Positions 12,491 through 61,573 of a stretch of DNA of 64,000 nt are shown piece by piece. The notes below the pieces were generated by a model. The model saw nothing but the letters and a program-made list of their open reading frames with translations. It did no database searches and was not told the DNA's origin. The stretch is taken from the NCBI GenBank assembly GCA_003971905.1, contig RSEE01000007.1, forward strand, positions 620,001 through 684,000, read 5' to 3'. Position numbers and translations under genes: made by a program. Within the stretch, counting starts at the first letter, position 1. Each line of letters opens with the position of its first letter. The stretch comes from Moniliella sp. 'wahieum'. Taxonomy: Eukaryota.

Positions 12491-12517
12491 GTCACTAGTC
12501 ACTAGTCACTAGTCACT
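12491..12517. repeat. Palindromic heptamer array (ACTAGT-C)x3+
   Basis: gtcactagtcactagtcactagtcact; a related ACCGGT-C array lies at 12949-12967. Confidence 0.9.
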
Positions 12518-13302
12518 GCCCCCGTCCCCGCCTCCCCAGGGGAACAGTGTGGAGTTCTACTGGGGTCTCTTCCCCCCAGATGGACCCATCTAGCAAAGCA
12601 GACCCAGTCTTCTGGGCGAATCCCGCCGCTCCTGCTCTCGCCGCACGAAGAGAATGGGGCCCACGCCTGCATGATTCCCGCGCCACCCAAAGTCAATTCT
12701 CTCATCGGCGCGGCAAAGACGCGCGGGGGAGTGTCCCTTGCATGCCAAGTGGGGTTGTGCTGTGGTTCAACTGCAAGGCGGCGACGCAAGGGGTAGCTTC
12801 TGCACAAGTGCGAAGGGCAGAGCCGAGGATGCCGGCAGTACGACGCATGAGGTTGATGCATGAGATCTGGGGCGCCGCAGACACCCGGAAGTCTATATAT
12901 GCACAACAGAGCTGGTGTAGAAGCAGGAGGGGTGGTTGGTGGTTGGTGGTCACCGGTCACCGATCACAGGTCGCAGGCGAGTCCTACTGCAGTGCTGCTC
13001 TGTTCTGCAATGCCTCCCCCTGGCGTGGCCGTGGTCGATGGTCGATGGACCCTCATTCCAAGTTGCTGGGGAGGGTCAATGCAACAGCATTGGAAGACGT
13101 ACCCATCTTTTGCATATATAGACTCCTCTCGTCTCCCCACCCAACTCTCTCCTTCTTCCCGTCCCCACCCCCTTCTTTCCTCGCTCCAGGCCCCTAGAAA
13201 CGCTCACTACGGCATTCGCACTCTCTCATCCTTTCTCCTTTGCCCCCTCTTCGCACCTTCTCTTGTGACACACCGAGAGGAAAGAGTACGGCGTATCGCA
13301 CC

Positions 13303-27315: not shown

Positions 27316-28646
27316 ATCGATCATGCATCCGATCATGCCGCTGGCTGCTGGCCCTCGTGTGGGATGGGTGCTTTCCCGATCCCTTTCAGATCTCAGTCGC
27401 TCAGCAGTCACTCTAGTCACTCCTAGTAGTCAGTACTCAGTACTCCCCGTAACCCAGTATCCAGCCGTGTCGAATGGGCATCGGTCACCGACATCTGCCC
27501 TCTGCCACCCCGTCTACGCGAGAGTGGCAGTGGTCCCATGTCACACGCGAGCGCATCGCAATGGCGCCCGCTGTGGCCGCTTGCCTCCCCAGGCGATCCC
27601 CCATTCGCAATCGGGGCTGAGGCACTGGGGCTCAGTCTGGCGCAGCGCTCAGCCGCTCAGCCGCTCACGTCCCGCTCCTCCTCCCCGAACGAGGGGGCCA
27701 GGAGCAGGGCCACAGTGTGATCCGCTGCTGCGCCATTGCAAACACATGTGGATGGCGGGGGGAATCCCCTCGTCGTCCTTCCCTCGGCCCGCCACCCCCC
27801 CCACACGGCTCATGTGGGTTTGAAAGCGCACCTGCGCCCTGGGGCCGGGCAGGCCTGGCTAAACGCTGAGCCAACGCTGAGCCTCAGCACTGACGTAGTA
27901 AGCACTACTGGTCTGCTGTGCTCCACCGACTCGTACGGACTCCGAGCGACCCCCTTCAAATTCTGACGCACACGCTTGCTATATTATCCGTCCCGGCGCT
28001 GTTGTGCCGACGGGGTCTGAGGCCCTGAGATCCTGAGATCTGAAATCAACGGGCCCTGGGCACTGTACACACCGAGTCCATCTGAGTACCTGAGTACACA
28101 CGCTACAACCGCCGCTCCCCTCTCCAACCGCGCTCTCTCTTGTGCTGCTCTCAGCTCGCTGTGGCTGGCTGAACGGGGGTATTACGCGTTACGCTGGAGA
28201 GGGCACTCACCATCACACACCCTTTTCATATCCATGCACCATGCATCACCCAAACGTCACGCATCTAAGTTTTTCCCTATCGTCTATCGTCCCTGTCACA
28301 TCCACATCACGCACATCACAGGTCCCAGCACCAAACTTTTTACACAGCCAAGCACCATCAGCGCACCAGTATACCCAGTGCATCAGCACCATCCCATCGG
28401 AGCAGGAAGGCGCATGAGCACGAGATCGGAGCAAGCGAAGCATGGCGATGGGCGATGACGTTGAACGTTGACGTTGACATGCATTGAAATTCAACCAGCC
28501 CCAGATCCCACAGGCGCCCCGGCTCCAGCATCCCATCGAGTCTGAGATCTGCCATTTCATCTGAAATCCGGCCAGAGTGTGAGATGCGGGTCGTGTAGAT
28601 CGAAGTCAATCCTAAAGCAATCAAGCTCAAGCTTCAAGCTTCAAGC
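27316..28646. repeat. Cluster of palindromic heptamer arrays in the GH5-NMT1 intergenic region
   Basis: ATCGAT-C-ATGCAT (27316), tcAGATCTcag (27386), (AGTACT-C)x2 (27432-27444), ttACGCGTtacg (28182), AACGTT-G (28464), (AAGCTT-C)x2 (28629-28641). Confidence 0.8.
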
Positions 28647-31002: not shown

Positions 31003-31176
31003 GGGGCGGAAGGATGGTGGGAGCCGAGTGCGGAGTAGCGCGCGCCGAGCCGCAAGCCGCTCTGTTCCCGGCCGAGCGGCCCCGGATCATCGATCATCTT
31101 CCGGCGCTTGCTGAGGTAAGCACGATGGGGCGGCTGTGCCACGTCATATGTTCCACTGCACTCACTCTGGAGCCGC

Positions 31177-31458
31177 CTAGTCACTAGTCACTAGTCACTC
31201 GATGATGGGGCGACTCTTCCCACGACATCCGGTGCACAGTGGGCATGAATTGGTGGGCGTCGGGCAAACGTTCCGACTATAGGGGGGCGGGGGGGAGGAG
31301 AGAAAAGAGGGGAGAGAAAAGGAAAGTCAAACGAGGAGAGAAGAGGCGAGGCCAAGTCGGGCAAAGGAAAAAAAAGAATGGTGACACGTGCGAGATGACG
31401 ATGATCGATGATCTGTCGATGATCGACCATAAAGCTATCGCTTTTGAAGCTTGAAGCT
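31177..31458. repeat. Palindromic heptamer arrays between NMT1 and KRE6
   Basis: ctagtcactagtcactagtcact (31177-31199), gatgatcgatgatc (31400), tgaagcttgaagct (31445). Confidence 0.85.
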
Positions 31459-43303: not shown

Positions 43304-44599
43304 GTGCGTATTTGCATCCATATGTATCTCTCCATATCTACCCCTTCCTGGGGGTGCAGCATCCCCTGGGTCGACGACAACGACGTTTCTCCCATCCGTA
43401 ATATAGTTTTTTCTAATCGTCTTGACCAAACGGCGTCACGCGCATCGCGCACGAAAATGCCGTACAGGGGCATATGGCTCAACGAGGAAGTGCTATCGGA
43501 TGATTCTTAAGTCCCTTCGCAGCCTCAGGGTAGTGCTGGGGTTCCCTTGCACGGCCCTCGGTGGATCGCGAAAGAGTTCCGATCGCAGGCGCGCGCGCCC
43601 TGCTCGCTTCATCTCCCTTCTCTCTCCTATCTCCTTCCCTTCAACTCAGATGTTGCCTGAAGACTTGTGGCTCACCCCTTTGCCTTCACGCCTGTCTGAA
43701 GGCTGCTTTGCAACTCATCCATAGGATCGCGAGTGCTCCCAAGTCGCACTCTATCTTTCCATCTGCCCAGTCGCGCGAGCCTTCCATCAGCCGCGTCGGT
43801 TCTCCGTACCACAGCATGTCGCGTGGGTTCCGTTCACAGCCACTGCCATGCCTCAGCCCTGGACGTGTCTGTCCGCTCCACTGCATCTACCCGTCGCTCA
43901 GCCCCGGAGGCTTCAGACACGTTACTACCCTCCAGCCGGCGTATACGCAGCCTTGCCACGCGTGCAGCCGCCTCGGCTTCACGCCCAAAGGCTTCTCCTC
44001 GCTCGGATCCACCAAGTAGCCCAAGCCCGAAACTACCGTAAGTCGTCTTTCATCTAAGGGATTGTCCCCCCTCTCTTCTTGTCCTCCCCCCTCTTCTTGG
44101 CCTCCCCCCCCCACCCTATTTTTGTCGCAAAGACCCTTGCTTTCCACATCTCCTCCTTGCTCCACCACTTCTCCTCCTTGCTCCACCACTCCGCGGCAGC
44201 CTTGTGGCCAGGGCGACGGCAGACCGTGGGCGTGGATTGAAGGGGTACCGTGTGCGAGTGTGGGCGTCGGTGTCGCAATGGGGGCACCGGCGGGGAGTAC
44301 GGGTAGGGGGCATTAAGGGGGTGGAGGGACGCGTCGACGCGACTCTGTCATATGCCCGATGATTGGCGTGGCCCGCCCCGGCCAGTCACGTGTAGGTCGG
44401 GGCAATAGGGTTGTTGGCACTTTCTTTCCACCCTCCGATATGGAACTAAGAGATGAGCCAAAGAGCCTGAGTTGAACTACCACAAGCGCCTGCAATCTGG
44501 AGGGACCGTCATCGCGACGGTATCCTTTTGTCGGAAGTAGAACCAAGACAACAGTGACACGCGAAGCTAGCAGGACCTATTTCCTGTCATGAGGGCGTG

Positions 44600-47560
44600 A
44601 TCACTGAGCTACTTATATAATCCTAGACAAACTGACGAGGAACGACGGGACCAATGGGCAGGGGTTGCATAGTAAGGCAATCGCTGAAATCGAACGTATT
44701 TCACCACTCCATGGTGCCTCTAGTTGTCGGGGCGAAGCCGTGGCGGCAGCGGCCCAAGCAATGGCCTACCACCAGAATGTGGCATCTCATGTGGCTGGTG
44801 AAGAGACCGATAACTGGTGTTGCCGCCACCAATCGAGCTGTTTCTTCCATATTTTCTCCGTCCATCAGCACCGCCCTCACCTCCACTCATTCCAGGCGCG
44901 CCCGGCATGGTCCTAGGACCTGAACTCAGTGCGCAGCCCATATATGCCTCGATTGTGCTTCCTGGCTGGATCGATGTATTAACGACTTTTCATCAGATCA
45001 CCTGCGACGGCCTGCCGCTGGACAAGACGGTTAACATTTCCGGGTATACAATGTCCGTTATAATATGGGGGCTTCATCCCAGCGATGGGGGCGCACACCG
45101 ACAATGACATGCCCCTCGAATGGGCTGGCATATCTTCTTCCAGAGGCGACTTCGAAGCCGAGCACCTGGCCCGCGAGTACATCCCCAATAATAGACGTGT
45201 GGTCTGTATCTTGGATCGTCTTCTGGCCCCCACAATTTGCCTTCCCCAATTATCATAGCTCAGCGTAACTGTGTCCCCATATGTCTTCGGCTCCAGCTTC
45301 TCAGCATGCCGCCCACGATGCATCAGCCATCGCGCAGCCCAGGATGGGCCCACGTATACCATCAACAAGCCCTCTTCAGTCTGATACTCACTCTTCTGGC
45401 CATGCAGCTTGCCTGGCCGCCCTCACCTCGGTCAACCTCTGATGTACCAAGAGGTGGTCAAGCACAATATGGTGGAAGTATGTAATGGTATATCTTCCTA
45501 TTAAGTATTCGTTGAACGATAACTTTTTTCCCAATTCTGCATATGGAAGTCTTTTTGTCTCTGGCAAAAAGCTACTAAGCTTGACCGTTATCGCTATACC
45601 GAATTGCCCCCTGTGTCGGTGGCAATGAACCAGTTGCATGTTCAGAAAAGAGTCTTTGGTTGGCATGCATGACCTTACATCGATCCACACCCTCTCTGGG
45701 GTGGAAACTGTGGCCTCAACCATCTACCTCCTCTTCCTGGGTCTGTTGATGGAACTGTTACGGGTCACTGTGGGCTGGCTCGCCCACACAACCCATCTCC
45801 TCCGTTGCCCGGAGCATGCTTCCTTCGACCTGTGCGACCAAAATCGAGTCCCTTCCGTACGGTTGGGGAGATCTGTGCGTGAGCTTGGAGTCCTTATACT
45901 CATCTTATTCAACTTCAAATATTTGTGGTCTTTGGTTGAGCGCAAGTGAGCTCTAAGGTGAGCTGCCGGATCTGGACGTCGACAGTCATCAGTCCTGACC
46001 CGCGGGCGTCTCTTCGTCGTTGTGAGATTCTACCCTCTTCATGCCTTTTGCGTTTTGGTGTGAGGGCGGAGACCTGCCCATTACTTTCCGCATTATTCCT
46101 TGTTTTGCTATTTCTGTTCTCAACTGAGTGCTGGAACCTTTTGCTCCTTTTGAGAGTCATTCGCCTTTATCCCTTCCTCTTTCTATGTTGCATCCATATC
46201 ATTGATGACGGAGCTTAAGGCTGGGACGGGGGGAAAGCTACGTCTAAACCGAGAACCGTTCTTCTTGCGGGAGTTACTTGGAAGCGCCCCAAGCTTAAGG
46301 ACTCGCCCCCCGATTCCGTACCCTAGGAAGCGCGTGTGGACACGGATGAACGTGGTTGGCAAGGAACCATTTCTGTAAGATGTTGATTCCGTCAAAAAAA
46401 TTCCCGTCGGTATGTGTACCCTTTTGTTCTACGTTATTTTCTGCTAGCGGTGGGCTATTTTGTATAGCAACATATCTCCTTGCAAATCCATTCTTGAGAC
46501 CCACTAGGCAACGCCCGTGCTACTCCCTAGTAGTTCACCGGCAGTCCCACCGATCTGCTTTAGCAACCACATCTTGGCTTTTCCGAATTCTTTCGTCCAG
46601 GGTTTCCTTTGCCGTCGATCTCCATCCAGCTTTCAATCTCCTCTCTGTGCGGATGCCGCGCGCTATCCTACAAGAATTGAGTGGCTCTGTGACAGACTTG
46701 TCCGACCTTTTTTGGCTACGTCAACCTTCCGCAACCTTTCAAGGTCTGCATCTAAGGCACGGTGGTCCGACTCGTTCCAGAAGGTGCATATACAGCCTTG
46801 CCACGCGAGCCGATGCCCAATATTTGAAAGGCCTCACCTCGTTCTTGCCGCTCGGATCCGCCAATAATAGCGTTCACGTTTTTGGTAACCGTGAGTGGAC
46901 CCTCCTCCTTGATGGGAAAGAACCCATAAACCGTGGGCTGGGCTCTAGTTCTGGGCCGATGGATATCCATATTTTTCAAGCCCTATCGTGTCCAACTTGC
47001 CGGCTAACGTGATGGAGATAACCAGGCGCCAAAACTTGAACTATCTCTCACGTATTAGCCATCCTGATCTGTGTATTCACGTGTACTGCCCCCCTGCCGT
47101 TCAGAAACGGAGCCTCTCTTTCACCGTCTTTCTCCACCAACTTCAATATGCAGCCTGTTGTCGGCTTCTTTGCCTGCGCTGAGGCTCGACAACCACATTC
47201 CGCAAAAAAAAGACAGAAGGAGCTTACCTCTCGTCCGTATTATCGAGCGCTTCTGTCTGCTCTGTTGGCGTTGACCAAGTTGACGGGTGCGGGGAACCCA
47301 GTCAGTGAAAAGCACCCTACTATTACATTCCCAGCATCCCACGCACTGTCCGTTTGGAGCCACTGTCCTTTCTTTGGGCACTCCGTTTTTTCCTGTGCTT
47401 TGTGGGGTCTCGTGAATATGAGCGAACTTGACGTTCTGATATCCAAGCATAAAACACTTCGGAGGAGACCAAACTTGCCCTTACCGTGGAGGGGCCCGCG
47501 TTGCTCCAGAGGGGCGCAACCTCTGAGTGTCAACATGCCACCCACGCCTTGCTGAAGCTT
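44600..47560 (-). other. Lower-GC region of broken ORF fragments; possible degenerate gene or element
   Basis: Abutting minus-strand ORFs (e.g. 45945-45724 and 45723-45388 in one frame, split by a stop) and one homeodomain-like peptide. No confident identity. Confidence 0.25.
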
Positions 47561-47854
47561 CACTGATGAGCTTGATGCATGATGAATGGTGGCGGATATA
47601 TATGGGTATAACTAGAATCCAGCTGTGGTATAGGGAGACAAGTGGGCATGCTGGCAGTGGGTGCAACATGCACATCAATCAACACATATGGGTGGTGGCA
47701 ACCGGTGCTGCACCAATGCTGGAGACGCACTTCAACGTCTAACAACTGTACGCGCCACCCAGAAGAACAGAAAGGTGCAGCGCATGCCCTGCAGTCGAGT
47801 CGGACCGATCGGACTGTGGCGTTGGGCCGATGTGGCAGCTGTGGCAGGCGAATG

Positions 47855-50800
47855 TGATGCATGATTGCATCAGTACTCACTAGTCACTAGTCACTTAGGG
47901 GAAGCATGGCTGTGAGAGCTGCTACCCCGCCGTAGCCGCAGTCTCTCGCCAAAGCTGCTGCGCATCGCCAGCTATCGTCTTCTATTCCGACTGCTTCCAG
48001 AGTGGTACAGTGTCAATTGCATGCCAATATTCAATCGATTTTGACTCTTTTTGTGCATATACCATTGCTTAAGGCGCTTATAAGGCCTAATTACTAACTG
48101 CTGCTATTATTATGGTCTGCGCCTGCTTATACAACCCGTGTGCGTCAGGGGCCTATAGCTAGTAATAGCTGTTGCTCGAGCGATAGGAAATGGTGTGTTG
48201 GGGGGAGCAATTGATGGTGTGGCTTGGGCTTTTCTGTGCCTGACTTTCTGAGGCCGGGGGGAGATCGGACAAAAAGGAAGACAGATTGTGTCACACGCGC
48301 CACTGGACAAGAAGAGTGCTCTCGTTGGGCCAATTGTGTGGCGTAGTAGAAAAGTCTGATGGGCTCTGGACCAATGGTGGCCAGCTTAATGTTGTTTGAG
48401 CTGTGTATCGCAGGCCGTGGCCCGCCGTGGCCGGGGGGCGCACGTCCCAGTTTTAGATATACTTTCTGAAGCGTTCCTACAGTTCATGCATTTTTGGTCC
48501 ATTAGTAACCATAATGCCGCCAAAAGCTCACAGTGAACTGAGAGATCGATTTGAGAGTTGCCGCCAGGGAGGGCCAAGAAAGTTTGGCAACGCGTGATCT
48601 AGCCCGAAACGAACCCGGTGGGGGGGCAGCCAGGGCAAGGCGGTGTATAGGATAGAAATAGCGCAGTCTTTACTGCCTCTCCGCCAGTCATTTACCGCCT
48701 AAGGGTATGGTCCTGCGGCGCTTAATCGTCCCAGACAAGAGGCGTCCGTTCCCTGGTACATACATAGTCATCGATGCGATCATATATATTGAGTGCTGAT
48801 GCGCTGATGCACTGATGCACTGATGCATGATACTGAGAGTACGAGTTCCTGATTACATTGAGAACTGTACTCAGTTGAGTACTCAGGTACTCAGTACTCA
48901 AATCTCAGACTGAGTACCGAAGGCTTGACGCTAGCTTGAGATCTTGAGAAGAAGCTTGAAGCTCTTGAAGCTAGCTAGCTTGAAGCTCTTCGAGGGGTTG
49001 AACGTGAACAACGTTGAACGTTGAGACGTTGGAGGAACGATGCATGATGCATGATGCATGATACTCGTGTAATGCATGATGCGTGATGTATGCATGATGC
49101 CGCATGCCAGCACATGTCAGTGTCAGCGCAATCCCGCATGTACCTGAATCACACGCGCCGCACAGGGATACTAGTCACTAATCGAGCGCTCAGCCATCAC
49201 GCGTCACGCCGCCGCTGTCTTCTACCTAACTTTTCTCCCCATATTCTGTCTTTTAGTACGGGCCTCCTCTGAGGATGCCCGAGGCCTGAGGCTGAGGCTC
49301 TTCGGCCTCAGGCCGGCCTCAGACTCTGAGGCATGATGGACTTGATGGGCTTGATGTAATCCCCCCTAAATTTGGACCGTCGTCATCGAGCGTCATCGCG
49401 TCATCGACGTCATCTCTCTTTTTTAGTAGCTTGAGAAATCAACGAAGCTTTTGAAGCTTGAAGCTCAAACTACGCGTTTGGCGCTTGTAATGAAGCTTTA
49501 TGTGCGTGATGAAGCAGATCGTTGATGGCATGATGTCCAACTGGCGAGCCCTGACGTTGCGAGGTCAGAGCTGAGAGGAGAGGTCCTCGGGCCTTGGGCG
49601 TTATCTGTGGGCTCAGAGTGTGGCAAAGTTCCGTGCAACGCTGGAGTCCACTACATTTGTCGTGTGTTGTTATATCAATATCGCCGGTCGCGGTCGCCGG
49701 TCGCGTGTTGCGAAAGCTGTTGTGTGGTGTCGGGTTTTTGTCGGTTACGCGTTCCCTTACCACATGCCAGTGACATTTATACCGGCTAAGTGGACGACGT
49801 GGGATTTGCTCTCTATTACCACCATCGAAGTTAGGTCTTACTGCGGCGAGCGCGCATCCGGTCCTATACTTGTGGTATTCTGTGACATCACAGGTATCAT
49901 CGGTACCACACGCGCCCAGCCACGCATTATCAGCGATTGTGGTTTTCACTATTCTTCATTTCGCTCTATTTGCCATGCCGAAGAGAAGCAATCGGTTGTT
50001 GGGGCTGTGTGGGTCACATTGGAGGAGATTTACTAGTAACTCTGGGAGCGCGGGGGGCCTACTCGTTCACAGGTGCATTCTCCTTCCTAAAAATATATTA
50101 TTGTGGAGGACTGGCCTTAGGCCTTAGGCCTTTTCACTCTTTCGCCCGACCTTTAGTTTCCGAGGCCTACTCATATATAACTACTGAAGGCTGTTCGAAC
50201 CCCTACATTTTCCAAGTAAGAAATGAGGCCTGACGCCTGAAGGGCAGGAGGATCTGAGGCACAAGGCACAGGTCTGAGGGCGAGAGGCCTATAATAGACC
50301 TCCACCCATTATTCTAAAAAGTTCAACCACGAGAATATCGACCTGGCATTTGTTGCATCGTAACCAACTGTGGATGCCATCAGATGGCCTCTAAAAGAGC
50401 TAGGGAGCTGTTCACGAACACGGAGAGTGAACGAAGTATCCAGTGGTGGAAGCGGTATCGGTTGTGGAGAGAGAAGACAGGAGGAGACGCGAACATAGGA
50501 GCACAAAAGGAAAGCGCAGGTGCGCCGCCAAAAACACTGAGACCTACTGCCAGCGTCGCATAGAGCCTGCCTAGGTCAAGCTAAGCGCTGACATCAACAC
50601 ATCACCACAGACTATATTGCTTTGCTTCTCTTGAGGGTTTTCATGAATCCTTTTGGGGTCCTCTGGTCCGCCGCATCACATATGAGTCACATCGTGATAT
50701 CGGTGTGTCAACGTTCAGTACGTTCAAAACGTTCAACGTTCAACTCGCCTTTTCTCTTCAAGCTTCAAGAGCTTCAAGCGAGCTTCAGGCAAGCTTCAAG

Positions 50801-53800
50801 CTTCAAGAGCTTCAAGCTTCATAAATCATCGATCAAGTCGATCAAGCCTCAAGCTCTCAAGCTCTCAAGCTTCAAGCTTCAAGAGCTTCAAGGCGCACCC
50901 TCTGAGGACGAGTACTGAAGTTCGAACCTTCGGCTTGAAGAGCTTAAAGCTTGAAGCTTGCAGAGCGTGAAGAGCTTGATCGTTAGCTTGAACCTTACCG
51001 AGCGTCGCTTCTCCGTCTGTCGCTTCCGTCCAAGTGGCTGACTGTTTTGCAAGGAAGGGCTTCCACGTGCGCCCCCTCCTCTGTTCGAGCCATTGGGGCT
51101 AAGCCTTAGCGCCCTTAGCGCTATGCTAAGGACAGGGACAGTGCGGGGCTTGATGCGTGGGGCTGGTGGGGCGTGGGAGGGCGTGGCCTAGCGTGGAATT
51201 GGCGGCGAATTGGCGTGGCGCGTTGGAGCAGCAGGTTGGAACTGTTGGAGCCGGTACATGGTGACCGGTGACCGGTGACCGGTGAAGCTTGGCTGAGGCG
51301 CTGAGGTTACCGGTTACGCGTTACGCGTTACGCGTTACGGGTGATTCGATTAATGATCTTTGACGTGTGACATGTGACATGTGACAATAGTGACACGTGG
51401 CGTGACGCCATGCGTCATGCATGCCACCGGTGACCGAGAACCCAGAACCGGGAACCGGGAACCGAGGACCGAGGACCGAACGGCAGGGGTCTGCGGCGCG
51501 CATTCCACAGTTCCGGCACACCCTTCTCTTTGCACGCACGTACACGAGAAGAGACACATTAGTACTTTTACGTACCGGCTGTACCCGTGATTCTTGCACC
51601 GGCGACCGGTGACAGATCACCCACATCTGTTGCCGGCATCATGCATCACACATACATCCAGTCTCAGATCTGATTTCCCACGTGTCACGCTCACGCCCCT
51701 ATCACCTAGTGTCACATGTCACATGTCACATGTCACCTGTCCCGTGTCCCATGTCACAGTCACATGTCACATGCAATACACACCAGTACCCAGTACTGAA
51801 CTCAGTTGAGTTACTCAGACTGAGTGTACTAAGCGTTGAGTGTTGAGTTAACACTCAGTTACTCAGTACGCGAAGGGCTCTGCACTTGGTACACTTCTGC
51901 TTGGCATGACGCTTCACCATCAACATGCAATCGGCATGTGCATGATAGTTGCCTCTGCGTCTAGAAAAGACAGTCATTTGCTTTTGGGCGGGGCAGGCCG
52001 ATGCCTAAAAGTTGTGGCAAAGACCAACATGTGCATGTTGTGATTCCGGGCGCGATCATCGATCCATGGAAGACTGGCTGAAGACGATGAACAGAACGAC
52101 AAGAGAGGATGATATGCGGAGTATCCCAACAGAGAAGAGGCAAGATATAAAGGAGGAATTATAGCCGTTTGTAAGGAGATGCATGATCCACTTGAAGAAC
52201 GTAATGCTATTGACATGATGTCTGTGTAGTTGCAATGACGCGCCAACCCAGCGAGAACCTCTGTAAGCTGTGGCCCTGTAACATGTAATGCATGGAACCT
52301 GTATATATATCCCCTTTTTCAAGCTTCAAGCTTCTCGGTGTCCAAAGTATACTGTACTCATCCCTACTCTCAGTACTCCGTACTCAGTTTGAGGATCTGA
52401 GTACTCAACAGATGCAACGTTCAAACCCCTTCCAGATCTTATTCTCAGCTGGTTATCTTGTTGGTGATACCTGATGGTGGCAACACACACACTTCAGAGC
52501 AAAGCAATTTAAAGCGCGTCTCTCCACCAACGTGTCTCGTCTCGATTTCCTTGCTCATCGGGTATATCTCGCCAGTAGCCATCATGCATCACGAGTCACT
52601 AGCTTCTTTTAACCTTCGTTCTATATCCAGCGGCCCGCCTTCCTTCTTCCCGTCCGGCCTTGCAATGGAGCGCGCCTGCATGAGAGCCTATTAGGCATGG
52701 TACATACGACAATTTTTGGCCACGGATCTTCGCCGAGACAAACTGTGGTGTCCTCTCCCTGAAATCCCATTCCGGCGTCCGGCCTCATATTCAATGCACG
52801 CTAAGAATAGAGTCTGTGGTTCCGTAGGCGTGCAAGGCCACACCTTTGTATAATCAGCCCCAGCTGCCCCAGCATGTTCAGCCAGGCTCAGCCTGCCTAT
52901 GCAATAAGCGCCCACACCGCTCACATGTCACAAGCATCACATCCCAACTACCCCACAGCCACAAAGATACGTGCAACATGTGAGACTAGTGACTAGTGAC
53001 TAGCTAGTGACTAGGACTCCGCTCCGCGGGCCTATTAGATCTTAGAAGAGACTTTATCGAATGCACCCCCAGAGAAAGGGACCCACCAGAGCCACACTAG
53101 AGCCACCCTGGGCCCTACTATCACCACTGGCCGTTCCTGTTCCCAGTACGCAGTACACTCAGGCCTTAGGCTACTCACGCGTCACGTACTCAGTACTGAG
53201 ACTCAGTACGCACCGTTATTGAACGATGATCGATGATCGATGAAGCTAGCGATCGATGAAGTTCACTAGAGTGAAGCTTGAAGTCACTAGCTAGTCACTA
53301 GTCACTAGTCACTAGTCACTGGTCACGGTCATCGATCATCGATCATCGAACACTGGTACACATCTGTAGGTGACCGGTGACTCCTGCGACGAGCGACAAT
53401 CGATCTAATCCATGGATGGAATGCAATCCGAAGTAGCACATCCTGTACCGTGTGTGAAATGTGGCGCGTCACAGCCTGACGGGCCTGACGAGTGCCGAAC
53501 AGGGCCGTGTCTTCCCTTCTCACATTCAGAATCTTCATACCTGTCGTTCCAAGGGGGGGGAAAGGGGCTACTAGGATGGCTGCAGTCTCTATCTGCTCTC
53601 AGGCATCAGGGAGGCCTCGGGCGCTCAAGCCGGTCAGGCCTCGGGCTCTGTCCTGCCATTTTGCCTTTATAGACTCTTCCCCCCGTCGTTCGCGTTCACG
53701 GATCACGCCCATGATGGCATGTCACATGTCACATGTCACGAGGATATCAAGTGATTGGGACTTCAAGTGTCCGGCCGCACCTCGGTCCAGAAATCCCCCA

Positions 53801-54460
53801 AAACACACTCCCGAAGAGCTGGGCAGGCAAGTGTCGTGACCAAGAGTTAATTCGTTCAGCATTGAATATTGAATATTGAGATCTGAGATTGATCGATCGT
53901 CTTGGTGGCTGCTGGCGGAGGTTGGGGCGGGGGCCTGTAAGACTCTGGGTGTTCACATGTCACACAGTGGGACTGAGTAACTGAGTACTGAGTCTTTGTA
54001 CTGTGACGCCAGAGGCGCCTGATGCTCTTAGGCCCACCAAACAGTGGCGGTGCGGCCAGCAGCGCTTGCATAATGCTCTGTAAACACGTAACGAGAGTGT
54101 GGCGCCCGCCTTGTCTCTCCTTTGAGGCTGAGCGCGCTGTGAGCGCTGTGAGCGTTGGACACCGCTAGAGTGCACCGAGCCCAGAGAGGCACCCTCGGTC
54201 CTCAGTCTGAGAATACTGAGCCCTGGCCTGGGGAGTACGCCGTAACAGCATCCCATCCCATACTCCGCCTCTTCGATCGCCACTTCTCAGATCTCAGGGT
54301 CTGTGTCGGTTGGTGTGGGCCATGCTGGGCCATGCTAGGCCACGCGTCGCACATGCATCGGCCGCCTATTGTCACCATGCCACATGTCATGCCACCGTTC
54401 AAGACAGGCACTTCCCCAGCCCAAGAGCATGGGCGCCTTGCCCATGTCACCGGTCACCAC
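47855..54460. repeat. Gene-free region densely packed with palindromic heptamer arrays and long-range inverted repeats
   Basis: Dozens of (ANNNNT palindrome + 1 nt) arrays, with main blocks at 47857-47895, 48790-49100, 50708-50992, 51264-51400, 51678-51870, 52320-52420, 52984-53380 and 53718-53982. Confidence 0.9.
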
Positions 54461-54957
54461 ACGCCCCGCCCAGCGCAGCGCTGGCTATATGCCGCTCGGC
54501 TGGTTCGCTGCCCTAGACCGCACAGTCCGTGCTTCCCCACAGCCTCCACCCTCCCATCGACGCTGGCGCCCGCTTCCCTCTGTCCGTCCTCGGTGGCCAG
54601 CTTCTCCGCCGTCTCTCCCTTAGAGTGTAAACACTCGAGGCCAAGTCGGGCCCGGAAGAGCAACCAGGCCTCATTGGGAGCAGGGTCCAACCGCCAACCA
54701 ACATTGAGAGTCTCTCGCCGTCGGAGTTTTCAAAGGGCCTACGCGCTCGTGGTTTGCGAAGCCGCCGCCAAGTTTTCCGCCCTCTGCTCTCTTGGACACC
54801 GATTTGGGGCACTTTCTTTGTTTCCGGCCTCTTCCGCGCCAGTTGAGCACGTCAACCAACTGGTGAGGCCGCCCGCTTCTTCACCTCGCCCATCTCCTCC
54901 TCCTTCTCGTTCTCCTCAGTCGCCTCGCACGTAACGCGGCCATCCACCAACGCCTCC

Positions 54958-57524
54958 ATGGCCCCGCCTCCCCATCCTCCTCACGTCCTCCGCGCGCTCC
55001 CAACGAGACACTCGCGACACAGCATGACCTTGAGCGTCCGACCAGAGCCGACACGCAAAACCCACCAGCAGTTCATGGCCCCTCAATCGGTTAGGCCTTC
55101 TTCCGGGACCTGTGGGACCTTCTTCCGAGCCTACCGCCAACCTGCCTCTACGTTTGCCGCCGCCTCTGTCCCAAACCTCTCCAGGCCGCTGCACCCCAGC
55201 TCAGCCTTGCCACAGACGACACCGCTGCAGCACCTTATGTATCCCCACCTCCTGGCCCCCCTGCCTCGCACCGCCTCCTACCACCCTCGCTCCTCTCCGG
55301 TCTCGCCCGCCCCTGGGGCGCCCACTGTCTCGACCGCCTCTTGCCCCTCCTCCCTTGAGCCGAACCGAGGTCGATCAGCCATCTAGATTCGACTTCTCTC
55401 CCTCCATCACCCACGCCCACCTCGACACGACCTCGAAACCGATCCTAGACTCCCTCCTTCATCCTCCTCCACTCACCATCTGAGCACTGGCTCCGAGTGG
55501 ACACGCCCAGGCCCGATTAGCTCGGCTCCTGGACAGCACATGTCGGGACAGGAGGCTGAAGAAACAAGATTCCTCCAACCCCGTTCCTCGGATCGCGCGT
55601 GGCCTGCATCAGGCACCTCTTTCCACTCCACCTCAGCGCTCCTTCTCTCTGGCACCCCAATGGCCGAGCACGACCGATAGGATCTTCCCCATATTCGCGG
55701 GAAGAGTATCTCTTTCGTACCGAGCACGGTGGATCCAGTGTTGGATCGGAAGTGGCCACCTCGATTCGTGAAGCAGAACCGCGGGGGTTGACCAAGGTTC
55801 TTCATTAGCACGGATCCTCAACCCTTCCCGTCGCCCTCCGGGCTCACCTGATGATCCCGAAGCCACAATGTCCGTATCGGCCAGCGGTGTGCACCGCGAC
55901 TCTGGTTCTTCTGCTGTTGCTCTTTCCATCCCCAAAGTACTACCACCTCATCGGCCTCCGGGGGGAAAAACGCCGAGCAGGCCGTCGACGCCAATTTAAG
56001 TACTTGACAGACCAACCCCTTTCTTCCCAAGGTAAGGAAGCAGCCAAGTCGAAAGATGTCGAGGTGCGCAAGAAGGTTAAGCGAGCCTGCGTGTACTGCA
56101 AACGAAGCCATATGCCCTGCTCTTCATTGCGCCCGTGCGTGCGTGTGTCAAACGAGGGATTGCTCACCTCTGCAAGGACGAACCTTTGTCAAACGAGCCC
56201 GCTCGTCTTCCCCCACCGAAAAGCGGATTTGAGCCCAACAGTTTTCCGCCTCAACCCTCGGCGACGGATGAACGTAGGGTCGCCCAACCAGATCCCGGCA
56301 TACGAGTCAAGCCGGAATCAGAAGAAATGCCAACATCCGCTTCGCAATCATTCTTGCCGTCGTCTCTGGTGGAGACAACTGGTATTACACCTCCGCCTAG
56401 ACGGTCTCTAACAGCCAATAAGAGCCCGATGCGCGCATTGGCAATTCCCATTTCGTTGATTACCCGTGTGGGCGCGACCGATCTTGACTTTTTGCCTCAG
56501 GATGATGGCGGACAAAGCGAACGGATCTTGAATCGGGCCATTTCGGATGCCCTGCATGTCTGCGAACTCTTGTCAGGTCAAGAGACTGCTCTAGTAGAAG
56601 CGATGCTTGACAGATCCCTCACTCCTTGTCACGAGTAAGTGCCCATCCTCCTTTACCCGTCTTTCCTTCTATCCCCTCCATCCACTCTCGCTTCTGAAGG
56701 ACTAATCATATGCATCTACAGACAAGACGACAGCATGCCTATGCAAAAAATGTTGCAGCATCACTCTCCTTTGCGTCGCCTACTTCGATATCCTCAAAGT
56801 GTTCTGGGAGAGGAAGCACTGACGTTGGTGGCTTTGCATGTGGACTGGGGCGATGACTTAGGCCCATGGGGGTACGGTCAGTTGGCCATTTGGCTCAAGC
56901 ATGAGCTTGAGGACAAGATGCGCCAAGCATTCGACCGTGCCTTGGGAACCATCCGTCTTCGATACTTGCGCCTGAGTCTGTCTCTGACGGAGGAACAATT
57001 GGAATCAGCGCAGCGCTCCTTCCATACCAGCCTGTCCCATTATCGTCTCAATCTCTTTGACTCGGTACCGCACGCTATGATTCTCGTTTCTCGCACCGGT
57101 GTCGTCTTGGCTGGCAATCGACGGATGTGCGATTGTCTTCATTTGGCGCCTCAGGCGATTCATTCGGGTCAGTTGCTCTACTTTGATCTGGTCGCTCGTC
57201 CGGACGTGATGCGCGTGGTGGAGGCATACGCTTCCTCTGTCTTGTCTCTCCTCCTGGATCAGCTCCGGTCCAGGCGACCATGGACTTGGCCTCAGGTGGT
57301 TCCTTTACCTTAACTCACGACTTTATGTGGACCGACTGGCTTACCTCCATGGCACCCAAGCCTGGAACCACAAAACCATGGACTATCACCGCGGTGCCAA
57401 CCACGAACTTGAAGATGGTTCTCCTACCGTTGTGCACTTCCGCGGCCTGGTCACCCTCCAACTCGTCGGTGACTGCTCGGGCATTCCCCCCTTTGTTGCT
57501 GTTTATGTCGTTGTGCTATCTTGA
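54958..57524 (+). CDS. Zn(II)2Cys6 transcription factor with C-terminal PAS-like domain, AcuM/RDS2-like (divergent)
   Basis: RKKVKRACVYCKRSHMPCSSLRPCV/.CVKRGIAHLCKDE matches the AcuM/Rds2 cluster pattern. C-terminal LTEEQL..., FDSVPHAMILVSRTGVVLAGNRRM..GQL. Intron 56635-56721; start uncertain. Confidence 0.75.
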
Positions 57525-59038
57525 GGCCATCCCCCTTATACCACTCGCACTTTGGTATACCGCGCTCCACCCCCAATTTCTTGCCCCTTGAGTATTGAGT
57601 GCCTGGGCTATTCTATGTGTATACCACTCCTTCATATGCGTGGCGGCTTTTTGCCACCTGATATTAGGCGAGATACGTAAGAAAAATGGAGATATACTAC
57701 GTTGGACGCATGAATTAATGAATGACCTTCAGCGCATCATATTGGCTGCGACCCAGGCGTGACGCGTGAGCGATATATGATAGGAGAAAACTGGTGCCTG
57801 CCCTACCCGCCCCTTTAACGACGGCAGTTGCTCCGTTTTCACATTAGCACGCGCGTGCGTGCGCCCACCATCGTCCGTAGCGAACCGTTCAATCGGCGAT
57901 CAAAGCCGGATAAATTATTTGGGTTCCATTGTTTCTCCCTGCTGGGAGGAGGGACCATATTTTTTCAACTATACTGAGAAAGAGCTGGGTCATCGCGTCA
58001 TCGACCGTCGGAGCCTGGAGAGGCGAGGGAGTGGCGGCCAGTCCGTGGGAAGATACGCGTCCTTTTCCCTTGCCAACTGCTTCGCCATCTGAGCTTGTCG
58101 GCCTCGTATTGGGTCTGTTGGACCTGGGCCACAACTGTCGCTTGGTCTCGGTGGCAATCAGCGCATCAACACAACCTTTGGTCCGAGACGGGCTTACTTG
58201 TACCCCACTGGAGTGCCGGGCAAAAGTGACATGCAGTTGCCGATTTTTGGCTGTTGACTCATTTGTATGTGAGTGTCAAGGGGCGATGGAGGTGAGTCAC
58301 ACACTGATCAGACGCATCATCGATCATCTCCAGTCGACTTCTATATCCCGATAACCCCTACTATATATGAGGGGACGGTGGCAACCAGGGGTGCCACATA
58401 TGTGTATGCGCACAGATTCCCGCTAGAGCACTCACTAAAAACAGTCCCGCGTGAATTAATCCATCGAAAGTCCAGAGCGTTGCATTTCGGGCCTGCTGTA
58501 ACCTGCTGCACCTCTGGCGTGTTGAGCGTGTGCCCCGTAAATCATGGGTTCCCTGCGGCCGTTCGAGAGGAAGCGGGAGAAGGGATTTTTGGTCCGTGGC
58601 GAGCCCAAACTCTTTCAAGCATTCTGGGATCTTCGGATTCACATTCCAGCTCTGGCTCTGATTATTAGATCCAGATAGGAAGCTTCTCCATCATATATTG
58701 ATGTGTGCCTCTCCTCCGTCCCCCCCGGAAGCACCTCTTTTGCAAGGGCTGTATTTCTTTGCTAAAACCATGGATGCCTTCGGGAGCTGTCGCGTCGTGG
58801 ACTTGACAATAACACTCTCGCCTAGTGTCGTGAGCAAGACGATATGAGCGGTAAGGGATTATTGAGTGGAGCGAAATGGATTGGAGGGGGGGTGGCTACG
58901 TCACAGGAGGGAACGGAGGTCAGGAGAAGCGGAGGCCGCGCGCACGCGCGGGCTACCCTCTGCCCCAGTGCCCTGGGGCGCACCCCGGCAGCCTCGGCAA
59001 GCTGTATATTTACGTCAGTACGTTAAAGCGTTAACGCG

Positions 59039-59106: not shown

Positions 59107-60812
59107 ATGCCCTTCGTCAAGTGGAAGAGGGTGCAGATGACGAGTCACTCACTTCGGAGCAGATAGCTTTCTTGGACGGGCGATGATGCTGATGAATTGG
59201 AGGGGTCGTCGGACGAGGAAGGGGAGGGGGAAGACGAGTTTGACAGGGAGACGGAAGACGAAGAGGAGGCCGTATAGGGGCCAATTCGACCAACGGTGAT
59301 GAAGACGACGACGACGATATGATGCCCCCCACCCTGCAAGATGCCGAAGAAAACATTGCCGCACTCCAGGGTACAGACCTGAAGATTGTCCAGCAGCGTA
59401 AGCAGGAGACTGTGACGGTCCTGACCAACTGGAAGAACTTTGACAAGTCGGACATGAGCGGTGCTCGGAGTCGGGCAGAGTATGTGGAGATGCTGCTCGA
59501 AGATATCTGTTCCTACTCTGGCTACAATCGGTTCTTGGCCGAGAAGTTTTTTGTCCTTTTCGCTCCCGCCGAGGTACGTGATGTGCTTAGTGGCGTGAAT
59601 TCAATTTCCGCACCGTGCTGACGTTTGTTGGAATCTCTCTTCGGCACTGGAGTTTTTGAGGCGAACGAGGTGCCTCGCCCTGTCACAATCCGCACCAACA
59701 CCCTAGGCACCCGCAGGAGGGACTTGGCCCAAGCGTTGATCAACCGCCGTGTGTCGCTGGAGAGCCGTTGGGGGAGTGGTCAAAGGTGGGGCTGCAAGCC
59801 TTTGAGTCGTCGCTATCTGTGGGTGCGACGCCAGAGTATTTGGCCGGGCAGTACATGTCTTCATCCTTCCTTCCTTCCTTCCTTCCTTCCTTCTTTTTCC
59901 TTCCTTCCTTCCTTCCTTCCTTCCTTCCTTCCTTCCTTGCATGCATTGGCACCGCAGCCGGGGGACCGGGTGTTGGATATGGCATCTGCACCCGGCGGCA
60001 AGTCAACGTACCTGTCGGCGCTGATGCAGAACACGGGGGTGGTGTTTGCCAACGGCGCCAACAAAGCGCGCACCAAGTCGTTGACGGAAAATGTGCACTG
60101 GTTGGGATGCAAAAATGGTGGTGTGCAGCTACGATGGTCGTATGTTCCCCAAGGTGACGGGCGGGTTTGACCGCGTTCTGCTCAACTCGCCTTGCTCTGG
60201 CACTGGGGTGATCAGCAAAGATGCCAGTGTCAAGACCCACAAGGGTGAGCGCGATATGCAGTTGCTCACCCACTTGCAAAAACATCTGATCTTTTGCGCC
60301 ATTGACTCCATCAATATCCGCTCGCCGACGGCGGGGTACGTCGTTTACTCGACCTGTTCGGTCTTGGTTGAGGAAGACGAGGAAGTGGTGGAATATGCAC
60401 TGCGCAAGCGGCCCAATGCCAAGCTCGTGCCCACGAGCGTCAACTTTGGACAGGTTGGTTTCCCCTCCTTCCGGGGCAAGAAGTTTGACGCGAAGATGCC
60501 GCTTACCAAGCGGAGATTTTGACCCACGTGTGCACAATCTCGATGGCTTTTGTCGCCAAGCTCAAAGTCAGCCCCCGCGACAAGACCCACCATTCCCCCA
60601 AATATCAGGAGGAGGAGGATCCGCAAATGACCTACTTTGGCTCCCGTTCAGGCGCAGCCAACCCCGCCTCCACAGGCAAAAACAAGAAGGTTGCCGCCGC
60701 GAAGGCGGGCGAGTCGCTGTTCAACGATGAGGATGAGGATGCCTCCTTGATCCAAAAGTCGCTGGAACAGGCCAGCAAGAAAAGGAGCAAGGGCAAGTCT
60801 TCATCTAGGTGA
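59107..60812 (+). pseudogene. NOP2: NOP2 25S rRNA m5C methyltransferase, probable pseudogene
   Basis: FEANEVPRPVTIRTNTL, GATPEYLAG, VLDMASAPGGK, FDRVLLNSPCSGTGV, VVYSTCS, HNLDGF. Microsatellite expansion, substitutions at conserved residues (DAPC>NSPC, ANDAN>ANGAN), stops in the 5' part and no normal N-terminus. Confidence 0.78.
59864..59938. repeat. (CCTT)n microsatellite, ~75 bp, inside the NOP2 copy
   Basis: tccttccttccttcc... read directly, with one interruption (ctttttcc). Confidence 0.95.
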
Positions 60813-61530
60813 GCTCAAGCCTTGGCTGGCCAATAATGTGTGGGTATACGTGACTAGCATAATATATGGGGGGAGTATAGGTGGACACATTGCGCAATGA
60901 TAGGGGGGATGGAGCATTAAGGGTAGACCGTAAAGGTGCCCACACTGCTACTGTTCTTAATCTTTTCAGCCCTATAGTTCCCATCCAGCCGCTGAATAGG
61001 TGAGTCGACGGAAGTGCCCGGGCTGAGGCGACCACAGAGGAGTAGCAAAGGTCGCAGATGGTGTCTGGTGGTAGATGTTTGCACCGAATGCGGCGCAGGC
61101 AGGCGGAGTTTTGCGCTGCGGAATCTACGCAATGACATCATGGCCCAACGTCCAACGTCCAACACCGCCACCGGCTCCCGCCTGCCCAGTTCGGCCGGCT
61201 TGTCCGGTTGCGGTTGTGGCCGGTGTGGCACAGGGCCTGCCCTTTAAGGCCCGACGGCAGTGAGTGTCTCGCTTGAAGCCTGCGGCTTGAGGCTCTAGCC
61301 GAGCCTGCTTGCCGGGAGATTGGAGAGGCCGTGGCCGCAGACACGGGCACTGGCCCGTGTCCGGCCCCCGTGGCGGCGCGGGGGTGAGCTCGCCCGCCCC
61401 AGGGTGCAGGTGGCCAGGGCTGCCCCCGTGCCCCAACTGCGCGCCGCAACCGAGTGCTCCCTACTACTCCGCATGCCTGCCTGCCCTGCCTGCCCTGCCT
61501 CCGCCCCGCGCTTGTTGATCTCCGTAGAGA

Positions 61531-61573
61531 GTCACTGGTCACTGGTCACCGGTCACCGCGTAGTGCACTAGTC
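61531..61573. repeat. Heptamer array upstream of the SCH9-like gene (ACTGGT-C x2, ACCGGT-C, ACTAGT-C)
   Basis: gtcactggtcactggtcaccggtcacc...gcactagtca. Confidence 0.75.

Follow-up and report, generated by a model that had tools for sequence, protein, structure and literature searches.

The 64,000-nt stretch of contig RSEE01000007.1 analyzed here (positions 620,001 to 684,000; hereafter the window), from the fungus Moniliella sp. 'wahieum', contains a gene-free island of lower guanine-plus-cytosine (GC) content, in which two pairs of inverted heptanucleotide arrays, A/A' and B/B', are interleaved (Table 1). Six-frame translation of the window revealed open reading frames (ORFs), some of them split by introns, with the domains of a DEAD-box/SPB4-like helicase, a UCH ubiquitin hydrolase, a PI4-kinase (phosphatidylinositol 4-kinase), a GH5 cellulase, an N-myristoyltransferase, SKN1/KRE6, an F-BAR protein, Paf1, a NOP2/RsmB-type methyltransferase, and a C2-domain protein kinase. 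The KRE6 ORF has its nearest match in Tilletiaria anomala (69% identity), and the next named matches are from other Ustilaginomycotina and from Agaricomycetes. On the basis of these eukaryotic housekeeping domains and the KRE6 matches, the sequence is nuclear DNA of a Ustilaginomycotina-like basidiomycete. Its GC content is 57.8% overall and 0.58-0.62 in most genic kilobases, compared with 0.49-0.56 in the island.

Table 1. Coordinates of the inverted arrays and related features in the window
Feature	Coordinates	Strand	Details
Gene-free, lower-GC island	47500..54200	.	dense in (4-bp palindrome + T-S-A) arrays; GC 0.49-0.56 per kb
Arm A, ACTAGT-G heptamer array	52981..53018	+	exact arm 52984-53012; doubled CTAG core 53000-53007
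A-to-A' spacer, 269 nt	53013..53281	.	first ~170 nt unique sequence
TGA-phased superarray	53217..53281	+	cores ACGA, TCGA, TCGA, AGCT ... AGCT
Arm B, ATCGAT-G array	53224-53243		exact arm; inside the TGA-phased superarray
Single continuous TCA-phased superarray	53282..53349	+	CTAGCTAG, CTAG x3, CTGG, CGG, TCGA x3
Superarray, TCA phase	53284-53345		cores CTAGCTAG, CTAG, CTAG, CTAG, CTGG, CGG, TCGA, TCGA
Arm A'	53282-53310		exact arm; doubled core 53287-53294; in the TCA-phased superarray
Arm B', ATCGAT-C array	53329-53348		exact arm; in the TCA-phased superarray, immediately after A'
Second inverted pair, ACATGT-G / ACATGT-C	arms 51361-51405, 51691-51735	.	repeat search and local alignment
Third, compound inverted pair	48921-49030 vs 50728-50849	.	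arms about 1.7 kb apart
Core change CCGG to AGCT	51262-51304		one linker phase
Core change CTGG to CCGG	61532-61555 (within 61531-61558)		one linker phase

Arm A' is the exact reverse complement of arm A over 29/29 nt, as found alike by a repeat finder, a script, and local alignment, and the two arms are 269 nt apart. Arm B' is the exact reverse complement of arm B over 20 nt (repeat finder and script), with the arms 85 nt apart. Both inverted repeats are thus present just as an earlier reading of the same stretch, made from the letters alone (the sequence-only reading), had described them, and their order, A-B-A'-B', is also the one it gave. In phase with the linker described below, arm A reads TGA-gaCTAG-TGA-CTAG-TGA-CTAGCTAG-TGA-CTAG, and the doubled CTAG lies one unit from the inner end in arm A and in arm A'. 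The irregular string that carries this extra CTAG, ACTAGCTAGT, occurs in the whole window at 52999 and 53286 only, that is, in the two A/A' arms, which confirms the earlier observation that the arms have the irregularity in common. Identity between A and A' ends at the array edges, and local alignment of both neighbourhoods found the flanks to be unrelated. First-order shuffling of 47001-54500 (30 shuffles) gave longest inverted repeats of 10-13 nt for spacers of up to 500 nt, compared with the 29 nt observed.

The four arrays involved (52984-53018, 53220-53243, 53291-53326, and 53329-53349) were each assigned a period of 7 by Tandem Repeats Finder and contain perfect period-7 runs of 20, 20, 30, and 21 nt, respectively; they are therefore heptanucleotide microsatellites. 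To the right of the unique part of the A/A' spacer lie degenerate AGTACT-type units (53186-53209), followed by the TGA-phased superarray that includes B. The linker polarity then changes from TGA to TCA at about 53281.

The arrays follow a simple grammar. Each unit consists of a 4-bp palindrome and a T-S-A linker, or equivalently of a hexamer palindrome of the form A-XY-Y'X'-T and one spacer base S (C or G). Apart from S, the heptamer is self-complementary, so that S alone sets the polarity of an array; two arrays with the same core, one spaced by G and the other by C, are necessarily reverse complements of each other. Because of this, B/B' needs no explanation: the pair is merely two 3-unit ATCGAT arrays of opposite polarity, and two such adjacent arrays are expected to form a perfect 20-nt inverted repeat half the time. 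A/A' is equally trivial but for its doubled CTAG core. The argument from a shared defect that the sequence-only reading made for A/A' is supported by the doubled CTAG; the arms of B/B' are reverse complements by construction.

This grammar is pervasive in the window, for which Tandem Repeats Finder lists period-7 arrays in dozens. A hexamer palindrome plus one base is the unit of 37/53 perfect period-7 runs of at least 14 nt; the chance that a random heptamer is of this form is about 10%. All 37 palindromes begin with A and end with T, a subclass that makes up about 2.7% of heptamers by an arithmetic estimate, and the cores represent 11 of the 16 possible ones (ACTAGT, ATCGAT, AAGCTT, AACGTT, AGTACT, ATGCAT, ACCGGT, ACATGT, ACGCGT, AGGCCT, and AATATT). 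The spacer base is C in 20 of these arrays, G in 15, and T in 2. Two palindromic hexamers separated by a single base (pal6-N-pal6 13-mers) occur 31 times, each time with an A-first palindrome. The 10-mer TNA-pal4-TNA, in which pal4 is any 4-bp palindrome, is found 113 times, whereas 50 shuffles gave 7.7 on average and 17 at most, and the island is its densest stretch, with 72 of the 113. The linker letter is the same on both sides in 83/89 of the cases in which both letters are C or G.

Spacing between linkers gives the same picture. Between 47001 and 54500, TSA pairs of the same type show a sharp maximum at a spacing of 7 (40 TCA-TCA and 31 TGA-TGA pairs), compared with counts of 0-16 at other spacings and of 6 and 6 for the mixed pairs at spacing 7. 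A palindromic 4-mer is enclosed by 54 of these 71 same-type pairs (chance, 1/16). Superarrays, in which the T-S-A phase continues while the core changes, are frequent, and the core changes along one linker phase (Table 1; CTAG, CTGG, CGG, and TCGA succeed one another about 53312-53328) suggest that cores may drift by point mutation and then return to palindromy.

What sets A/A' apart is the rarity of its irregularity. A core doubled within 15 nt is found in 2/37 perfect palindromic arrays, namely A and A', and in 0/35 others, from which a per-array rate of less than about 0.09 follows. The window contains five ACTAGT arrays (at 12491, 31177, 47877, 52984, and 53291), and only those at 52984 and 53291 have a doubled CTAG. 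A scan of metagenomes with ACTAGTSACTAGTSACTAGT returned at least 124 loci, and among the listed loci holding (ACTAGT-S)3 a doubled CTAG was found in 0/124. That both members of one of nine neighbour pairs should carry a mirrored doubled core by chance has a probability of about 0.01-0.03 or less (arithmetic estimate). These frequencies favour a shared origin of A and A' as the better reading, although the case they make is not overwhelming. The sequence-only reading had proposed that one of the two arrays arose as an inverted copy of the other or was converted by it in that orientation, and had named as counting against this a doubled CTAG common in ACTAGT arrays; in the window it is seen in 2/5, which are the two arms themselves.

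The doubling might instead have arisen twice, A and A' being independent ACTAGT arrays of opposite polarity, each with its own CTAG duplication, for example through a slip favoured near array ends. Opposite polarity alone has a prior of 0.5, and comparable changes do occur elsewhere in looser array sequence: AGCT is tripled at 48969-48980 and GGCC doubled at 49311-49318, in both cases flanked by TSA, and an AG/CT insertion in AAGCTT units recurs in both orientations. However, the only two perfect arrays with a doubled core are adjacent and mirrored, the external loci offer no further example, and the doubling is equidistant from the inner end in both arms. We therefore consider two independent slips rather unlikely.

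In the window, neighbouring arrays of one core are mostly opposite in polarity. When same-polarity arrays of one core no more than 100 nt apart were merged, same-core neighbours were opposite in polarity in 5/5 cases up to 500 nt and in 8/9 up to 2.5 kb, and 6/8 of the opposite pairs run from G to C. Random neighbour polarity, the second result that the sequence-only reading had named as telling against inverted copying, is thus not what the 64 kb contain (opposite in 8/9, or 6/7 by a fair count), and this, together with the rarity of the doubled core, supports its proposal for A/A'.

Other inverted pairs also share irregularities. In the ACATGT pair the similarity between the arms extends about 20 nt past the arrays on the inner side, into flanking sequence. 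The compound pair is mirrored as a whole, [AAGCTT-G, AACGTT-G] at 48921-49030 facing [AACGTT-C, AAGCTT-C] at 50728-50849, and both of its arms contain the 9-mer variant AAGCT-CT-T. The AG/CT insertion in AAGCTT units is found at 48951-48988, 50758-50890, and 50933-50979 in both senses relative to polarity. In the last of these, an AAGCTT-G cluster, the dinucleotide is inserted in the opposite sense, which indicates that this variant arises repeatedly. The ACATGT pair is itself nested within an AAGCTT pair (50947-52334).

The reading that we prefer, with somewhat better than even confidence, is that A/A' was copied or converted from a single array, within a family of quasi-palindromic heptanucleotide microsatellites that is specific to this lineage and resides in the nuclear genome of a fungus. 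A and A' carry reverse-complementary arms with a rare shared irregularity, as is expected of an inverted duplication. They would descend from one array by one of two routes: local inverted copying, through a template switch within the molecule or through fold-back as DNA is replicated or a break repaired, or conversion of a short tract between arrays opposite in polarity. The number of units at the outer ends would afterwards have been altered by slippage; A' has about two more units than A and ends in CTGG. The island as a whole may have grown in the same way, slippage lengthening the arrays, cores drifting and returning to palindromy (e.g., CTAG, CTGG, CCGG), and arrays being copied repeatedly in inverted orientation around spacers of 0.06-1.7 kb, and hairpins may have a part in the slippage. 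B' simply continues the TCA-phased superarray that contains A'. We think that A/A' has no function of its own and is a by-product of hairpin-prone, recombination-prone repeat DNA.

Spaced inverted duplications are a known product of fold-back or template-switch repair, and gene conversion from arm to arm occurs in genomic palindromes. Like such duplications and converted palindromes, A/A' has inverted arms with identical derived changes, a single-copy spacer, and identity that persists in a mutable sequence. Unlike in these, its arms are only 29 nt long and consist of microsatellite, and no junction microhomology can be read with confidence.

Several points weigh against this preferred reading. 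A and A' cease to resemble each other where the arrays end, no larger duplicated segment is visible, and the likeness in non-repeat flanks that an inverted duplication would be expected to show is not found for this pair; moreover, 29 nt is short for homologous conversion. The interleaved order is incompatible with a single inverted duplication of A..B; one such event was considered for both pairs and rejected, as the reverse complement of A..B gives B'..A' and not A'..B'. The excess of opposite polarity is also weak. Of the eight opposite pairs, two lie within the 100-nt merging distance; without them, the fair count of 6/7 has a one-sided binomial p of about 0.06 (arithmetic estimate). With imperfect arrays added by hand the count becomes 9/12, and the metagenome loci listed show random polarity, with 14 opposite pairs, 18 of the same polarity, and 17 whose spacers are not complementary. 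The 124 listed control loci are largely bacterial and say little about the mutation spectrum of this fungus. The doubled and tripled T-S-A-flanked cores elsewhere in the island make recurrent slippage a real alternative. Finally, the constant T-S-A linker is left without an account.

The existence of several inverted pairs also raises the question of whether the arms are the terminal inverted repeats of a small element, either of the foldback type or similar to a miniature inverted-repeat transposable element, whose ends consist of subrepeats in tandem. On this view the island would be made up of nested elements of this kind, their left arms carrying TGA linkers and their right arms TCA linkers. 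Several G-then-C inverted pairs do enclose unique segments of 0.06-1.7 kb, the opposite pairs mostly run from G to C, one pair is nested in another, and one bacterial inverted pair with the same TGACTAG unit exists (described below). Against these stand the following observations. No target-site duplication is visible at either arm boundary, and the outer arm edges are not sharply defined. The interior of A/A' (53013-53281) has no second copy within the 64-kb window by blastn (word 11, E<=1e-3), nor, under the same settings, have the interiors of the other pairs. The arm cores differ between pairs, so that no family-wide terminal sequence beyond T-S-A is apparent, and there is no transposase-like ORF, with no Pfam match in the ORFs tested between 43.5 and 58.5 kb. 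Finally, B' lies outside A/A' and is yet contiguous with A', which nested insertion does not predict. A mobile element is, in our view, quite unlikely here.

Foldback (FB-type) transposable elements have long inverted arms of tandem subrepeats around a unique middle, with variable arm length. The present pairs resemble them in having inverted arms, built from short tandem repeats, on either side of a unique middle segment, and differ in that no target-site duplication, interior repeated in the window, shared terminal sequence, or transposase is visible. No fungal foldback elements with such arms were found in the literature searched.

It is very improbable, to our judgment, that the arms are kept identical for purposeful pairing, whether as a hairpin or pseudoknot in a transcript (for example, a source of double-stranded RNA) or as a DNA structure at an origin, centromere, or recombination site. 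The 411-nt single-stranded DNA is indeed predicted to pair A with A', with a minimum free energy of -69.2 kcal/mol and a z of -4.78 against shuffles, and the island is a gene-free trough of GC content. This score is, however, a direct consequence of the 29-nt repeat that the strand contains, and B and B' are unpaired in the same predicted fold. The pseudoknot-like order pointed out in the sequence-only reading therefore carries no evidence of function, and its proposal that arrays pair physically over hundreds of base pairs holds only in the trivial sense that a single strand pairs A with A' in silico. Folded alone, the arms are weak (-8.2, -4.6, -4.4, and -3.2 kcal/mol). At 269 and 85 nt, the spacers greatly exceed the lengths at which cruciforms are extruded from duplex DNA, which also counts against functional pairing. 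No curated structured RNA was matched, Rfam giving 0 hits in the whole window at the gathering score; a tRNA scan of the window was likewise empty. In addition, the same array types occur in ordinary spacers, in smaller clusters that adjoin housekeeping genes at 12.5-13.0, 27.3-28.7, 31.1-31.5, 35.1-35.4, and 61.1-61.6 kb.

The linker itself may hint at more than slippage. A signature of an active, sequence-specific process, one that generates palindromic heptamers in T-S-A phase and duplicates them into inverted pairs, could be seen in the invariant T-S-A linker, with its central C/G as the sole asymmetric base, in the 4-bp core, which varies freely and is always palindromic, and in the tendency of arrays to end on the core dyad. 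Together, these features would point to a hairpin-making or hairpin-resolving enzyme or to a mobile element, and by analogy the process might be a eukaryotic counterpart of bacterial heptamer-array hairpins. We regard such a process as unlikely. In the footprints of cut-and-paste transposons, two identical 3-nt overhangs anneal with a central mismatch, of which T-S-A is reminiscent. Two footprint models were tried and rejected. The first, a 3-bp TSA target duplication with 2+2 terminal bases, would require as many different element ends as there are cores (11). Under the second, a 4-bp palindromic target with a 3-nt overhang, C and G should be mixed within an array, and neighbouring linkers agree in 83/89. 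Hairpin stability was also rejected as the cause of T-S-A: in 5/6 stretches folded, the local hairpins predicted have little stability (-3.2 to -8.4 kcal/mol), and for pairing C-S-G or G-S-C linkers would serve equally well, yet none occur in the window.

Some details of the grammar may be recorded here. When all arrays are oriented to TCA, 15/37 stop after the first two core bases, that is, on the dyad axis of the core, and the starts fall mostly in phases 0, 2, and 4. A linker of CCA or TGG with a palindromic 4-bp core is found at 28232-28245, 51783-51796, 61145-61163, and 13032-13048, in units of CCA+TGCA, CCA+GTAC, CCA+ACGT, and TGG+TCGA; this is apparently a variant linker class. Relatives with a period of 8 or 9 lie at 48796-48831, 28024-28040, 28082-28097, 54123-54154, and 50761-50816, and their units take the form of TGA + a 4-bp palindrome + C, of TGA-GCGC-TG, or of AAGCTT units with an extra AG.

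The nearest described class of repeats is bacterial. Tandem heptamers of the STRR type (heptanucleotide repeats) are known in bacteria, and heptamer loci of bacterial or cyanobacterium-like character are numerous among the metagenome loci listed, ACCAGTC and AATCCCT being examples of the units that recur in them. Bacterial genes are present in metagenome contigs L008, L032, and L063, and no close relative of the window was recognized among the metagenome matches listed. The bacterial repeats and the fungal arrays are alike in their period of 7, in arms of about 3-5 units, in their confinement to spacers, in having the same architecture with a different unit at each locus, and in forming inverted pairs frequently around a short unique segment. 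The likeness extends to the unit itself in L063, where an inverted pair of TGACTAG-type arrays around about 80 nt (2690-2815) occupies a 150-nt spacer between an enoyl-CoA hydratase ORF and an aldehyde dehydrogenase/MaoC ORF. The ORFs of this contig (ferredoxin-reductase-like, enoyl-CoA hydratase, and aldehyde-dehydrogenase/MaoC) lie back to back, as in a bacterial paa-like operon.

The differences are equally clear. The present host is a fungal nuclear genome, the fungal unit is a quasi-palindrome in which the T-S-A linker is invariant and the 4-bp palindromic core free to vary, and the fungal spacers reach 1.7 kb. In contrast to bacterial cassettes, there is no four-helix-bundle (S23p-like) or nuclease gene between the fungal arms, no Pfam match having been obtained at 43.5-58.5 kb. 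A bacterial heptad-array hairpin or intervening-sequence-like cassette was accordingly considered and rejected, given a fungal host (KRE6, PI4K, Paf1, and N-myristoyltransferase genes) and the lack of any Pfam family in the ORFs tested. A looser analogue is fungal: palindromic, microsatellite-like repeats have been described in the mitochondrial genomes of Fusarium, where they are intergenic, are linked to indels, and are suspected by the authors to be mobile (PMC7218506). The Fusarium repeats share with the present arrays a fungal host, a palindromic organization, and an intergenic position; they are mitochondrial and not nuclear, and the comparison covers these features, not a heptamer period or the T-S-A grammar (PMC7218506). 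No description of nuclear fungal arrays with a grammar of 4-bp palindromes and T-S-A linkers was found in the literature searched.

Other metagenome contigs may be mentioned alongside. L004/L005, L018, and L041 are rich in palindromic heptamers whose hexamers have any first letter (e.g., TCTAGA-C, CCTAGG-C, GATATC-A, and GCTAGC-T). The 8.2-kb L041 contains 56 period-7 arrays, 29 of which are a palindrome plus one base, and the long ORFs of L004/L005, L018, and L041 gave no Pfam match. At L015 969-1030, a G-spaced ACTAGT array abuts a C-spaced one to form a long near-perfect palindrome.

Taken by itself, the 29-nt repeat would be a small footprint of inverted copying in unstable repeat DNA; more unusual is the grammar that the arrays of the island follow. 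It is the context that is notable: fungal nuclear spacers written in a strict grammar, in which any 4-bp palindrome is joined to T-S-A with a period of 7, often in inverted pairs. If this grammar extends genome-wide, it would offer a natural system for studying the origin of self-complementary microsatellites, the maintenance of their palindromy, and their seeding of inverted duplications, as well as a set of hypervariable markers and a eukaryotic comparison for the heptamer repeats of bacteria. If slippage alone is responsible, the arrays would be a curiosity of one lineage.

The island, about 7 kb long, sits in a roughly 15-kb stretch (43500-58500) in which none of the ORFs tested (at least 90-140 aa) has a Pfam match. 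A coding reading of the island was rejected: between 47 and 54.2 kb, 17 ORFs reach 100 aa or more from stop to stop, but they resemble random translation, and those tested had no Pfam match. The island may be a centromere-like or otherwise special region, or merely a large spacer. Among the smaller clusters, the one at 31085-31458 is flanked by two minus-strand genes, KRE6 (at its 3' end) and the N-myristoyltransferase gene, and consists of four arrays in the order ATCGAT-C, ACTAGT-C, ATCGAT-G, and AAGCTT-G. Its polarity switches from C to G in the middle, and the cluster is therefore alike on both strands. A (TCCT)19 microsatellite at 59864-59938 overlaps ORFs with the RsmB/NOP2-type methyltransferase domain.

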